Shown here: positions 15,001 to 24,000 of the stretch, piece after piece | Layout of the letters: the number at the start of each line of letters is the position of its first letter | How positions within the stretch are numbered: position 1 is the first letter of the stretch | NCBI GenBank assembly: GCA_963735805.1 | Contig: CAVTMK010000003.1 | Span: 421,714 to 485,713 of the forward strand | DNA: 64,000 bases | Direction: 5' to 3' | Source of the DNA: an uncultured Verrucomicrobiae bacterium | Lineage (GTDB): Bacteria > Verrucomicrobiota > Verrucomicrobiia > Chthoniobacterales > UBA10450 | Position numbers: made by a program

Positions 15001-18000
15001 GTTGCTGAAATAACAGAGTTATTGCGAAAGATGCGGCCGAAATCGTCTTCATCCGGAAAAATTTCGTCCTGCATTGGAAGGAACACACCTGCCGAATCGA
15101 CCAGATAAATAATAGGAAGCGAACACTCAAAGGCGATGCGCTGTGCGCGAATCACTTTTTTGGTTGTCTGCGGAAAGAAAGCTCCCGCCTTTACGGTTGC
15201 ATCGTTAGCAACAATCATGCACGGAATACCCTCGACATTGCCTATGCCAGCGACGACACCGGCCGCCGGAATCCTGCCCCATTGTTCGTACATTTTGTAA
15301 GCTGCCCAAAGACCGATTTCGAAGAACGGCGAGCCCTTGTCGAGTAAGCGATCGATTCGTTCCCGCACAGGCAAACGATTCATCTTTCGCTGGCGTTCGT
15401 GACCAGCTTTGCCGCCTCCCTCACGCAGCACAGCCTGCTCTTTTGCAATCGCGTCGCAGTGAGCCCGTAGTATCTCACTAGTCGAAAATGTTGATAATGA
15501 CCGGGACATGGTACGAAGCACGCTTAATCCGCGAAGGCGATCGAATCAAGTTGTACTCATGAATGTTGGAATAGAGGCAGCGCTTCCCAAGCGCCATTGA
15601 GGCAAAAACTGAGAGACTGCGGGATTACTCTAATCACGCAGATTGAAAGAAAGAGAGGACCATCCATTGAGAGCTTTTCGCTCTCGACAAGTTAATCAGA
15701 TTCTTGTGAAACTCGCATTATGAAAACACCAGTCCCAACACTCCTCATCATATTTTCACTCGCCTCTTTTGTATTTCCACCAAAGGCGCACGCCGTCAAT
15801 CCACCACCGGATGGAGGTTACGCCGGCGGCAACACGGCAGAAGGCCAGAACGCGCTTTTGAGTCTTACAACAGGCACATACAACACGGCCATTGGTTTGT
15901 ATTCGCTACTGATCGATGACACTGGAAAGTTTAATACGGGGATCGGAGCGGGGACTCTCCTTCTCAATACCGCAGATGAAAATACGGCTACCGGCGCTGG
16001 AGCCCTTTTGAGCAACACGACTGGCGTAGACAACGCCGCGATTGGAACGTTCTCCCTTTTCAACAACACCACTGGCAGCTTCAACACGGCCACGGGTTCA
16101 CTCGCGCTCCTTGCCAACACTACCGGCACTGAGAATACTGCCAACGGAACATTCGCCCTGAATATCAATACGGATGGCAGCTTCAATACTGCGATCGGCG
16201 CGTTTGCTCTCGCTAACAATACCGGGAGCGAAAATACAGCCGTGGGAGTGAACACTCTCTTTGACAACACCGCCGGTGGAAACACCGCGGTTGGGGCGAA
16301 TTCTCTCCGGCTCAATACGACCGGATTTCAAAACACAGCCGTGGGTGACGGTGCGCTCCAAAGCAATGCTGGCGGCAGCTTCAACACCGCTATCGGAGAC
16401 GCTGCGCTGACTCTAAACACCGGCGACGGCAACACAGCCTGCGGCAACGTGGCGCTTTTCAATAACACCGGCAGCAACAACACGGCCCTGGGCAACATCG
16501 CCGGCACGAACCTGACGACTGGAAGTAATAATATCGATATCGGCTACAACGTTGGTGGGGTAGCAGGCGAGAGCAACACCATCCGGATCGGCGATTCGGA
16601 TATTACCGCCACATTCATCACCGGAATAAGCGGAGCAACCTCCTCTGGTGGCGCCGCGGTCTTTGTAAATTCGAACGGTAAGCTCGGAACGAGCACCTCC
16701 TCGGCGCGATTTAAGCAAGACATAAGACCAATGGGCAAAGCGAGCGAAGCTATCCTGGCGCTCAACCCGGTGAGCTTTCGTTATAAGAAGGAAATCGATC
16801 CCCAAGGTATTCCGGAGTTTGGACTCATTGCGGAGGAAGTAGAAAAAGTTAACCCCGACCTGATCGTCCGCGATCGTGAGGGCAAACCGCAGACTGTCCG
16901 TTACGAACAGATCAACTCGATGTTGCTGAATGAATTTCTGAAAGCACACCATAAAATGGAAGCGCAACAAAAGCAGATTGATACCCTGACTGCGCAGCTC
17001 AAAGACCAGGCCGCGCAAATCCAGAGAGTGAGCGCGCAAGTTGAGATGAGCAAGCCCGCTTCACGAGTAGTGATCGACGAACCGTAACTTCAAAAAGACG
17101 GCGATTAGAAGAAATCAAAGGCGAATAGTTTGCAAGATGGAGATCAGACCATGAAGAATCGAAACATGATGCACAGACTGCCAATACTAGCGTTGGCACT
17201 TGGCCTCTTTGCTCTTTGCTCAACGGCGCGAGCAGTGAGTCCACCGCCGGACGGAGGATATGCAGGAGGCAATACCGCAGAGGGACAATCCGCTCTCCTA
17301 AGCCTGACTACCGGCATATACAACACGGGAATCGGGATATATTCTCTTCTGAGTGTTTCCGACGGCGACGCCAACACCGCTGTCGGCGCAGGGACGCTCT
17401 TTGCCAATACCGGAGGCGAGAACACAGCAGTTGGTGCCGGAGCACTTTTTAGCAACACCACTACTGGCGGCAATACCGCCGAAGGAGCATTCGCTCTTTT
17501 CAGTAGTACCGGCTTGTCCAACACGGCTGTGGGCGATAGGGCGCTCCTTCTAAACACTAGCGGTGGCTTTAACACCGCTGTTGGCCAAGCCGCAATGTTG
17601 AACAACACCACGGGTAGCAGCAACATCGCTATCGGTGTTCAGGCGCTCGGTAATAATGACACAGGCAGCAGCAATATCGCCATTGGCAACGTAGCCGGCA
17701 CCGGCGTTAACACAGCTACTAATGTCATTTGTATCGGCCAGGTAAGTGGTGCGGACGTCGACAGCCGCACCTATATTGCTAATATTGCCGGTACCACGGT
17801 CAGCGGCGCCGGAACCGACTCTGTAACCGTAGACCTAACCACGGGATTGCTCGGTCATCTCAGTTCCTCGCGCCGTTACAAGGAAAGGATCCAGCCGATG
17901 AATAACGCCAGTGAAGCACTCTACCGGCTCAAACCGGTCACCTACTGCTTCAAGAAGGAGATCGACGCTAGTCAGAGCCTCGACTACGGCCTGATCGCCG

Positions 18001-21000: not shown

Positions 21001-24000
21001 TCGGCCGGGTCTTCGGCGTCACCTCTTCTGCAGGAACTGCCGTGTTCATTAATTCAGACGGTAAACTTGGCACGACCACTTCCTCGAAACGCTTTAAGGA
21101 AGAGATTAAGCCAATGGGTAAATCCAGCGAAGCGCTTCTAGCGCTCGAACCGGTTACGTTCCGGTACAGGAAGGAGATTGATCCAGCCGGCACACCACAG
21201 TTGGGCCTTGTGGCCGAGGAGGTGGAAAAGGTAAATCCCGACCTGGTGGTGCGCGACAAAGATGGAAAGCCTTACAGTGTGCGTTACGATCAGGTCAACG
21301 CGATGTTGCTCAACGAATTTCTGAAAGAACATCGCAGGGTTCAGCAACAACAAAACGAAATCGACTCTCTCAAGACGGAGCTAAGACAGCAACGGGATCT
21401 GATTCAAAAAGTAAGCGACAGGGTGGAAATGAGAGAACGAGGGGAATTATTCACAAAGAATCCCTAACCAGGCGAGCCTGCGCCTTACTTCCCGCAGCGG
21501 GGGGCTCCTGTGGCGTCAGAGGAACAGTACAAAAGCAAAACAACGCAACAGCGTGCACGACGGAGGCACAAGGTCCAAGTTACCTCAGTTCAGCCCACTT
21601 TTTCTTCGGTGCCTTCGGTAGCACCTTCGACCGTTTTGTTCTTGAGCATGTCCTCGAACGGTCTGTAGAAATTTGCGTAGAATGGATACGGCCTGTCGGC
21701 GTTTGCAGGAAGGTAGCGCCAATGTTTATACATCCAGAGCCAGGGCGCCGGGTTTTTTCGCACATAAGGTTCGAACGAATTCCAACATGCCTGGGCGATC
21801 TCCTGATGGGACATACCATCAGTGGAGTTGATCTTGGGATGGAACACCAGCCTGTAACGCCCATTGGGTAGCGGCTCGCAATGTGCGGGAATGATCGGGA
21901 CACCGGTGCGTTCGCTCAACCAGGCATGCGCGGAAGTCACGCTGGTCTTTAATCCAAAACAATCAATTACCACCGCGCCCTGGCTAGGTGGAACGGTGAG
22001 ATCGACCAGCAGGGCAGTGCGCCCTTTTCGTCGCAGCGCCTTGTAAAGCCGGACGATCCCGCGCTCCCGCGGAACAAGCTCATGCCCGGATTGCTCACGC
22101 AAATTTTTGAAAATTGGATCGAGCGATGAGTTCTTAAATTCCTGCGAGATGATTGTGCCTTTGAGATCCAGGAAACCACAGGCCAGACTAAGCCACTCAA
22201 AGTTACCGTAGTGATAGCACGCGATGATCATGCTCCGTTCCGCGCCGGTGTCACGCGTGGTTTCTTCGAAGTTCTGCAATTCGATATACCAAAGGAAGTT
22301 CAGTGGCGTCAGGCGCGGGCTCCATAGCAAGTCGACCATGGTCCGCGCGAAATGTTGAAACGACTGCCGGGCAATCTCGCGTCGCTTACGGGCAGATAAT
22401 TGATCGCCAAACGCTACCTCCAGATTGCTCAGGGCAACATGATATCGCTGCTGATCTAGAAAGCTAAGCAAGTTGCCAGCCGCCTGGGCGAGGCGGTAGC
22501 AGACCTTTCGCGAGCATAACGGAATCAATTTTGCTGCCAGGGAAAGACCGGCCCACTCAAGGCGGTACCTGAATCGTTTCCAGCGCGAACGCATTCATCA
22601 TTTTGAATGACGAACGTCGAATGTCTAATGACGAAGGAACCCTGAATATCGATTACGAGCACGAACCCAAGTAAGAGATTGCAGAGCGACCTCTTACCAA
22701 CCCTGGCCGGGATTAGCTACTGGAGGAAGGCCCTTCCGAAAATCCGCCTGTTGGCGCTGGGCATCACGCTCCTGGTCCGCCTCGCGTGCCTTCTGCTCGG
22801 GGCTCGGCCCTTCACTACAGCCTAAGAGTACAAAGGCTGACGCAAATAGAACAAGAAATGAGATCTGTTTCATAGGGAGGTCTGAATCATAGCCACACTG
22901 TTGAATGCAGCAAGATTCCAGGAGCGGTTCGGGAATTGTTACATCGGATTCGCGATTCGACGTGGCGAAAGCCTTTCGTTATTCGCCTCGCCTTTCCGAC
23001 GTCAGCTTCAGGCAGTCGCGCTCGAGCGTCTTGAGGTGTTCGATTATTTCATTTAACGCGAGTTCGTTCCTGAGATTGACCTGGTAATCAATCTCGGCAC
23101 GAAGCCGGTCCTTGTGAGACTGCCGATTTTGCGCCATCAGGATGATTGGCGCCTGCAGCACAGCGAGCATGTTAATCGAAGTACTGAGAAGCAGGTAGGG
23201 ATACGGATCAAAGCCGCTGTTGGCGAGCAGCCATGTGTTTATCACTACCCACGCGTTGAAAAAGAGCACCGCAGCAATGATGAATTTCCAGCTGCCACCA
23301 AACTCTGCGATAATGTCGGCAGCGCGATCTGCGAACGTACGCTGGGCCGCTTCTTCCACATTGACATTGCGCGTAGCGCTGCGACGCAAAAGGTCGTCGG
23401 TGTGCCGCAACCGGTTGGCCAGAGCGCTGAGCATTTCCAGCGCGATGTCGGCGCTGCTCCGCAGGAAAGAAAGAAAATGTTCCCGCGAAAGCACACCGAG
23501 CCGCGCATCCTCCGCAACTATCGCGTCGGCTGAACGTGGTTGTCCGTCGAGCAATGCCATTTCACCAAAGAAATCGCCGCGACCCAATTCCGTTAGCGTC
23601 ATCTCATGTCCGTCCGCGGTCTGCACGCAAATGCGGACTTTGCCCCGCTCGATCAAATACATTGCTTCTCCCTCGTCACCGGCACGGAACAGAAACGTTT
23701 TTTCCTTGCGGTCGATGGTCTCCATCAATTGGCATAATTTTCTCGCCGCCTCGTCATCGAGCGATTCGAACAACGGAACGTGGCGCAATGTATCGATCGT
23801 CATCCGTCGTTAAATAATAGCGGCAAACCAAGCCTGCGAGAAGCGTCAAATGATAAGAATGACGAAATCCCAACGACAAAACCCAATGTGCGCTTTCGCT
23901 CGTTAGTCATTTGTCAGTCGTCATTTCTTTTGGGTGGCTTCGGATCCAAAATTTTACTATTGCTGAGTTGATTTCCAAATCGCAAAAGTTAGAAGGAGAA

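Follow-up and report, generated by a model that had tools for sequence, protein, structure and literature searches.

The locus described here raises the question of why a soil bacterium should carry, side by side, several genes for secreted fibre-like proteins with a phage-type chaperone domain (Peptidase_S74), and of what their products do. The uncultured Ca. Udaeobacter ranks among the most abundant bacteria of soil, and this fibre family is a prime candidate for how it contacts its surroundings. The window analysed (64,000 nucleotides of a Ca. Udaeobacter contig) was found to possess a tandem run of four intact fibre ORFs, all of which, with the features listed for them below, lie on the plus strand.

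Gene 1 (15720..17087, 455 aa) begins with a signal peptide (15720-15794), followed by approximately 15 rungs of a 17-aa repeat, a neck, the S74 domain (16698..16862; Pfam residues 327-381, E 6.9e-13), a coiled coil and a tail, with the coiled-coil end and the lineage-specific C-terminal tail located at 16977..17084. Its predicted cleavage serine lies at 16698 with a lysine five residues further on, the same dyad spacing as S587/K592 of MyRF (PMC8326128). Gene 2 (17130..18275, 381 aa, likely start 17151) has about 10 rungs, a coil and a tail, with its predicted S74 serine at 17865. Gene 3 (18334..19770, 478 aa, likely start 18388; about 15 rungs, coil, degenerate tail) and gene 4 (19980..21467, 495 aa; about 18 rungs, coil, divergent tail) have their predicted S74 serines at 19390 and 21081, respectively, and are 89% identical to each other over 299 nt around S74. 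A promoter-like motif (TCGACAA, ~17 nt, A-rich hexamer) was identified at 15684..15722, its end lying 7-9 nt upstream of the gene 1 ATG, and again before the likely ATG of gene 3 (18350..18390) and the ATG of gene 4 (19943..19982). It occurs in 6 of 27 upstream regions of the family compared with 0.04 expected, the pattern having been derived from these same sequences; a SigW-like promoter was found in none of the 27.

A tblastn search of the whole genome gave 27 places for this family, namely 26 genes at 16 loci and one relic, reproducing the gene and locus counts and the four-gene run of the initial annotation. The proteins range from 326 to 557 aa and are built as a signal peptide, 17-residue repeats, a neck, S74 (in 19 of 26), a coiled coil and a short lineage-specific tail. 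The repeats, reported earlier as 4-20 NT(A/G) units, have a period of 16-17 residues and number about 10-20 rungs per protein. Full ORFs were observed for 25 of the 26 genes, the sole frameshifted member being an S74-bearing gene (C1:227.9 kb). The family is multi-copy in 18/18 relatives sampled, with some 20-30 copies in well-assembled Udaeobacter members and mostly 1-2 in sister genera. The literature search, which missed most subscription papers, yielded no description of the Udaeobacter family.

Peptidase_S74 was detected in all four window proteins (E 7e-13 to 3e-10; 41-49 bits against the curated Pfam cut-off of 22). Across the genome PF13884 matches 19 places, every one within the fibre family, which agrees with the 19 of 26 genes recorded previously. 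The motif S-S-x-R-(F/Y)-K was found in all 19 of these members, 126-153 residues from the end; its existence had been correctly noted, while the number with R/K at x is 15 and not 16. The Ser/Lys dyad, five residues apart, is invariant in the 18 members aligned and present in all 19. The S74 profile matched the solved phage tail-fibre chaperone 6F45 (E 4.6e-5; two structure matches in all), a single-protein sequence search of solved structures returned no matches, and Foldseek on the C-terminal part ranked the MyRF ICA 7DC3 first (E 0.04) with 3GUD and 3GW6 lower. Like the chaperones of phage tail fibres and tailspikes (PF13884; K1F 3GW6, 6F45), these proteins have a beta neck, the dyad five residues apart and then a long helix (65 residues in the AlphaFold2 model of gene 2); they differ in having a Sec signal, no virion-binding N-terminus and no phage operon. 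By homology, the S74-bearing members are probably self-cleaving. Trimerisation of MyRF is driven by its C-terminal coil (PMC8326128), and a coil-driven trimer whose N-terminal part is freed by cleavage, as in MyRF (7DC3; PMC8326128, PMC3742443), is predicted here; MyRF, however, continues from the coil into a membrane segment and binds DNA through its N-terminus, whereas the Udaeobacter proteins have a soluble tail of 15-25 residues.

Seven of the 26 members lack S74. The initial annotation considered frameshifts likely for these, an explanation which is rejected since all seven are intact open frames that retain the signal, the repeats, the coil and the tail; the most informative subclass was thereby taken for assembly errors. 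The S74-less genes are in-frame deletions of three junction types, two of which were matched in other members of the genus, in 39 and 30 of 107 genomes. For these two types the neck runs straight into the coil at 28/29 and 22/24 of the loci read in relatives, and no new domain appears at the neck-coil junction of the S74-less members. A single origin of this class is disfavoured, as the trees need 3-4 changes and an AU test on a 98-column N-terminal tree (25 of the 26 rows included) gave p 0.039; both trees are weakened by recombination between copies. The paired cut and uncut versions constitute a natural experiment on which functions require the S74 chaperone.

A three-copy prediction for the S74-less member at C4:645 kb, outside the window, scored 0.96 (pLDDT 88) compared with 0.00 for the best control, with at least 92% of contacts agreeing between runs. 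Among solved pairs, 20 of 30 attained the mark used for this score, as did 1 of 23 single chains; these counts are approximate here, and resemblance to trimers of solved structure may explain the pass. Heptad contacts were observed in the coil of the predicted trimer, and the coil by itself seems to suffice for trimerisation. The AlphaFold2 monomer of gene 2 had a pLDDT of 66.7. Among fold matches, the left-handed beta-roll heads of the trimeric autotransporter adhesins UspA1, CbpF and YadA showed 18-25% identity but an rmsd of 7-9 A (UspA1 in one model: Z 13.4, rmsd 7.7, 166 aligned, 25% identity), while right-handed beta-helices showed ~10% identity at an rmsd of 3-5 A and ranked equally high in a second model. 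Given the rmsd of the head matches, the handedness of the solenoid is not settled by fold matches. The adhesins (UspA1 3PR7, YadA 1P9H, CbpF) also resemble the family in their signal, a head of repeats with a small-residue motif in the trimer core (predicted here), a neck and a coiled coil; they differ from it in that the repeat here has a 17-residue period, no Pfam YadA hit was obtained and neither the protein nor the genome shows a beta-barrel anchor.

A hydrophobic N-terminal stretch was present in 25/25 proteins examined, with alanine at -1 in 23 (by hydrophobicity and cleavage-site pattern). The same 25 contain no lipobox pattern and, once mature, no hydrophobic segment long enough to span a membrane; they end in a helix and a short tail, and the YadA anchor PF03895 was not found in the genome with a search that recovered its control in E. 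coli. The short leader or the tail could be anchored by a partner that escaped detection. The designation of the family as a main surface-fibre system is unsupported, the proteins being short and without detectable anchor. Families of GspD, GspE and GspF type are present in the genome.

Taken together, it is suggested, with a probability of roughly 0.55, that the family comprises homotrimeric beta-solenoid binding proteins which are exported by Sec, possess no anchor of their own and are produced in cut and uncut versions. The earlier view of trimeric, self-cleaving cellular fibres is retained in so far as the proteins are cellular, exported and not of prophage nature, with a fold that may be adhesin-like; trimer and cleavage are each probable, as predicted from the model and from homology. 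Following removal of the signal peptide, the C-terminal coil would gather three chains, and the neck and the 17-residue rungs would then zip into a trimer. For 19 of the 26 genes, by homology, the S74 collar between neck and coil would cut itself off at the serine to leave a free head of 210-385 residues per chain. The other seven have S74 deleted in frame, and the coil is predicted to stay as a permanent clamp on the trimer. Folded trimers would probably exit via the type II secretion system and may stick non-covalently to a surface polymer, be it of their own envelope, of neighbouring cells or of soil matter.

The uncut form may also be an exchangeable module that tethers secreted enzymes from their C-terminal end, as fusions are found in relatives. 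Seventeen fused ORFs in eight relatives place a passenger (BNR propeller, GH42-like, FN3 plus NF038122 metalloprotease, cupredoxin or hydrolase domain) ahead of an S74-less module; the loci were chosen for long frames, so that no frequency can be derived. One leader type is common to 15 of the 16 loci re-read (one was not parsed), and the fused loci are therefore not independent. Two loci syntenic with such fusions carry, in this genome, the same passenger joined to an FG-GAP module in place of the S74-less one, and none of its own 26 family genes bears a passenger. The uncut module of 300 residues may represent a compact trimerising or tethering tag.

These fusions also bear on a rather doubtful alternative, according to which the coil and tail dock the trimers on a partner in the envelope or on the export machine, S74-bearing copies shed their heads as adhesins or decoys by self-cleavage, and S74-less copies stay, serving as a surface-display handle for enzymes. 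Such a release would be analogous to that of MyRF from its membrane part. It would fit the observation that the passengers seen within the genus all sit on S74-less modules (0 of the 12 longest S74 frames in five genomes, mostly frames of at least ~540 aa), although S74 proteins of sister genera do bear extra N-terminal domains. It would also fit the tail, the last 20 residues of which are 93% identical (pN/pS 0.09) compared with 62% (0.45) for the head among 20 orthologues of one S74-less gene, these residues having been outside the search query. In the predicted C4:645 kb trimer the last 14 residues lie outside the interface, and tail and family leader occur together in 46/46 cases while the tail is absent from 72 distant repeat proteins. 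Against this, window genes 3 and 4 have degenerate tails, some fusions have truncated ones, and the tail does not serve as a sorting signal in its own right. A general role in sorting like that of PEP-CTERM was rejected, as the profile hits in this genome only family genes and two remnants, and 59 of the best 60 matches of at least 130 aa are fibre-family proteins or fragments.

The use of S74 by a free-living bacterium outside phages, which had been put forward as new, is preceded by the MAT fibres of Bdellovibrio bacteriovorus (21 members, 13 ending in S74, e.g., Bd3182, with self-cleavage shown at S782; PMC10769870), which limits the surprise; what differs here is the clean loss of S74 and, in relatives, the uncut module on secreted enzymes. 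Both are chromosomal multi-copy families with a signal peptide, a trimeric beta fibre (predicted here) and a C-terminal S74 in most members. The MAT proteins, however, are ~1000 aa in length compared with 326-557 aa, and they swap S74 for adhesive tip domains, whereas in Udaeobacter S74 is deleted and the coil retained, variation residing in repeat number and, in relatives, in N-terminal passengers. The Udaeobacter host is not known to be a predator. The initial reading as MAT-like surface fibres, with the leader attached to a base at the cell surface and the C-terminal neck, once cleaved, forming the outward tip, draws on the similar S74 logic and repertoire (PMC10769870), on a leader conserved across paralogues and on a 406-nt identical block in two paralogues, which suggests exchange between copies. 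It is nevertheless considered unlikely, because MAT proteins have a conserved 130-aa beta-rich domain right after the signal where only ~13 residues precede the repeats here, and because the N-terminal enzyme fusions of relatives would block an N-terminal anchor.

A 130-aa N-terminal domain is often present in the large repeat-plus-S74 proteins (1000-2000 aa) of Bacteroidota, Patescibacteria and other Verrucomicrobia, which share the 17-residue repeat and often S74, and lack the Udaeobacter leader and tail; databases name them 'tail fiber domain-containing protein' or 'trimeric autotransporter adhesin'. This domain has no Pfam family, was not detected in the present genome and may correspond to the MAT N-terminal domain. 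The proposed borrowing from phage tail spikes is unsupported, the nearest outgroups read being cellular Verrucomicrobial proteins.

A non-adhesive role, as a periplasmic or matrix scaffold, a phage or predator decoy or an ice- or mineral-binding solenoid, is very unlikely. The regular Thr/Asn-rich solenoid, the failure to find an anchor and the presence of the ice-binding proteins 3P4G and 3ULT among the fold matches would be compatible with it; however, many unrelated solenoids match just as well, the NTA residues are placed in the core of the predicted C4:645 kb trimer and off any flat outer face, and the exchange with an FG-GAP module fits binding better.

The neighbours of the family genes are housekeeping genes, and no phage, tail, capsid, terminase or integrase family is among the listed Pfam hits of 103 of the 161 ORFs called nearby (family members and most short ORFs excluded), which supports the same statement in the initial annotation. 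That the genes are remnants of prophages, or encode the fibres of a tailocin or a contractile injection system, is already largely refuted by these neighbours, the signal peptides, the intact frames (25/26), the multi-copy state in relatives and the failure to find a sheath or baseplate-J family in the genome (94% complete), even though eCIS operons can contain S74 genes, an eCIS toxin is recorded for Ca. U. copiosus (PMC8213781) and similar repeats exist in phage and giant-virus proteins. The direct repeat reported at a tRNA-Met gene is real, measuring ~326 bp (328 bp previously); it brackets the adjoining family gene, and its left copy stops at the anticodon loop. Another family member is located ~100 bp from tRNA-Arg.

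The four ORFs at 15720-21467 of the window were found where the initial annotation had placed them, each with a Pfam Peptidase_S74 (S74) domain, and its count of 26 family genes at 16 loci was reproduced by tblastn. With the N- and C-terminal parts of the window proteins as queries, 27 places were identified in the 3.5-Mb genome, namely these 26 genes and one relic, and all 19 genome-wide matches to PF13884 lie inside the family. EF-P of this genome shares 97% identity with entries under the name Ca. Udaeobacter. The fibre family is real and lineage-expanded. All 18 members of the genus that were sampled contain many matches. 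Among 150 genomes drawn from the order, 11 of the 15 that belong to the taxonomic family and 5 of the other 135 have close S74 relatives, mostly in one or two copies outside the genus. The relic (locus read L012:4487-5265; contig C1, 28.5-29.3 kb) joins the family signal and leader to an unrelated ~150-aa domain with no Pfam match, followed by stops and a tail remnant; a second tail remnant lies at C2:846.0 kb.

The proteins are ordered as signal, leader of ~13 residues, ~10-20 rungs with a period of 16-17 residues, neck, S74 (19 genes), coiled coil and a tail of 15-25 residues. The 25 proteins examined have an N-terminal hydrophobic stretch with a small-residue cleavage pattern, recognized from hydrophobicity and sequence pattern rather than by a dedicated predictor, and neither a lipobox nor a membrane-length segment further downstream was found in them. 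A Ser and a Lys five residues apart are kept in 19/19 S74 copies; according to PMC8326128, the dyad has identical spacing in MyRF (S587/K592) and endoNF (S911/K916). The family profile matches a solved phage tail-fibre chaperone. The top Foldseek match was the MyRF ICA, and it was weak (E 0.04). Both AlphaFold2 models (pLDDT 66.7 and 73.8) predict a parallel beta-solenoid for the head. For one model the best fold match was UspA1 (Z 13.4, rmsd 7.7, 25% identity), while for the other right-handed beta-helices rank equally high, with lower rmsd and ~10% identity. Identity as trimeric autotransporters was rejected, as there is no barrel. In one S74-bearing gene (L014:4686-5999; C1:227.7-228.0 kb) a frameshift lies at a G-rich run shortly past the leader and may reflect either misassembly or a slippage site.

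S74 is missing from seven genes, with three distinct junction sequences among them. Frameshifts had been thought likely in such members, but the neck joins the coil in frame in all seven, so these genes are not frameshifted. The junction queries matched in 39, 30 and 2 of the 107 other genomes of the genus, and a direct neck-coil join was seen in 28/29 and 22/24 loci read for the first two (the remainder being broken or not interpretable). Trees required 3-4 changes of S74 state and a single S74-less clade was rejected by one AU test (p 0.039); both results are blurred by recombination, because two S74-less copies at L026 share 406 identical bases, a sequence identity that suggests recent gene conversion. 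Five tandem family copies stand at this locus (L026:5295-12417), four with a common upstream motif. When one S74-less member was modelled in three copies, a trimer was predicted with a score of 0.96 vs 0.00 for the best control, contact agreement of at least 92% between runs and pLDDT 88. The score mark was reached by 20/30 solved pairs and 1/23 single chains, counts that are only rough here, and resemblance to trimers of known structure may explain why the member passed. The predicted interface comprises the repeat motif, neck and coil, with the last 14 residues outside; it fits the coil-driven trimerisation described for the MyRF domain in PMC8326128.

In eight relatives, 17 ORFs have secreted domains fused, mostly through Pro/Thr linkers, to the S74-less form at the point where its mature part begins. 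These loci are long frames selected from matches of the junction query seen in 30/107 genomes; one leader type was present in 15 of the 16 re-read, and tails were cut in some. In the present genome, all 26 family genes are free of passengers. The passengers are a BNR propeller, a GH42-like domain, FN3 with an NF038122 metalloprotease, a cupredoxin, a hydrolase and unnamed domains. At two loci with conserved gene order the same passenger in the present genome (81% and 64% identical) ends in FG-GAP repeats, so another C-terminal module can take the place of the fibre. None of the 12 S74 frames of greatest length in five genomes had such a passenger, a reading that took in few shorter frames. In sister genera, collagen, TIG or other domains occur N-terminally in S74 proteins. 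In one relative (G104, contig C6), a 991-aa frame at L104:3168-6140 has a single signal peptide and three consecutive head-S74-coil-tail units, a possible self-processing polyprotein; protein P0019 has two S74 motifs.

In the outgroup repeat-plus-S74 proteins read, from other Verrucomicrobia and Bacteroidota (L199, L200, L201), a 130-aa domain without Pfam family directly follows the signal peptide; it is common to Bacteroidota repeat proteins and was not detected in the present genome. This domain may correspond to the N-terminal one of the MAT fibre superfamily of Bdellovibrio bacteriovorus. The fibre family probably arose by loss of this domain.

We favour, at a probability of roughly 55%, anchorless secreted binding trimers. 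The proteins would be exported by Sec, fold from the coil, cleave themselves where S74 is present, exit by type II secretion and bind a surface polymer; GspD, GspE and GspF-type families are present, and no YadA anchor was found in the genome. A system in which fibres dock by the tail and are shed or stay is a doubtful alternative. Across 20 orthologues of a second S74-less gene, identity is 93% over the last 20 residues (pN/pS 0.09) vs 62% over the head (0.45). Of 120 long homologues, 46 have both leader and tail, 2 the leader only and 72 neither. The tail profile matched 2561 clusters, of which the best 150 were family proteins or fragments where readable; the tail is thus part of the fibre module, and was rejected as a general sorting signal.

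Fibres anchored N-terminally like MATs are unlikely. According to PMC10769870, Bdellovibrio displays 21 MAT fibres on its cell surface; 13 of them carry S74, and their self-cleavage has been demonstrated. The initial annotation had regarded a non-phage tail-spike chaperone on a free-living bacterium as new, and this is therefore already in print. In folding, the Udaeobacter family would work like the S74 MATs; however, the N-terminal domain and tip replacement of MATs were not found in the family, which is hence not a MAT member. No description of the family in Udaeobacter, and no earlier one of anchor absence, of a conserved uncut class or of such a class serving as an exchangeable module for enzymes, was found in the literature searched, which covers a minority of subscription papers. 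Roles other than adhesion are improbable.

It is very improbable that the genes are phage remnants, and the earlier statement that no phage genes are nearby held, with no phage family among the listed matches of the 103 neighbour ORFs scanned; 161 had been called, from which family members and most of the short ones were set aside, and for the window itself the neighbours were read off the ORF list alone. Housekeeping and regulatory genes surround the family, and no sheath or baseplate families were found genome-wide (94% complete). The reported tRNA-Met direct repeat and tRNA-Arg neighbour are both real. The 326-bp repeat, including half of tRNA-Met, flanks one fibre gene (L016:4352-4677 and 6269-6596), a sign that DNA was inserted or duplicated at a tRNA; the scanned neighbours include no integrase.

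Elsewhere in the genome, a Pro/Thr linker followed by a short Arg/Pro-rich tail closes ~41 ORFs of >200 aa, many of them arranged in long tandem arrays (C2:326-410 kb, C4:246-260 kb, C4:697-705 kb and other places); this ending is a possible second and larger C-terminal motif for tethering or sorting. By eye from the ORF list, a single ORF at window 24423-26228 resembles a fusion of a low-molecular-weight phosphatase domain with serine hydroxymethyltransferase, and 10459-11283 (minus strand) a peptidoglycan-binding domain with an M23 peptidase.
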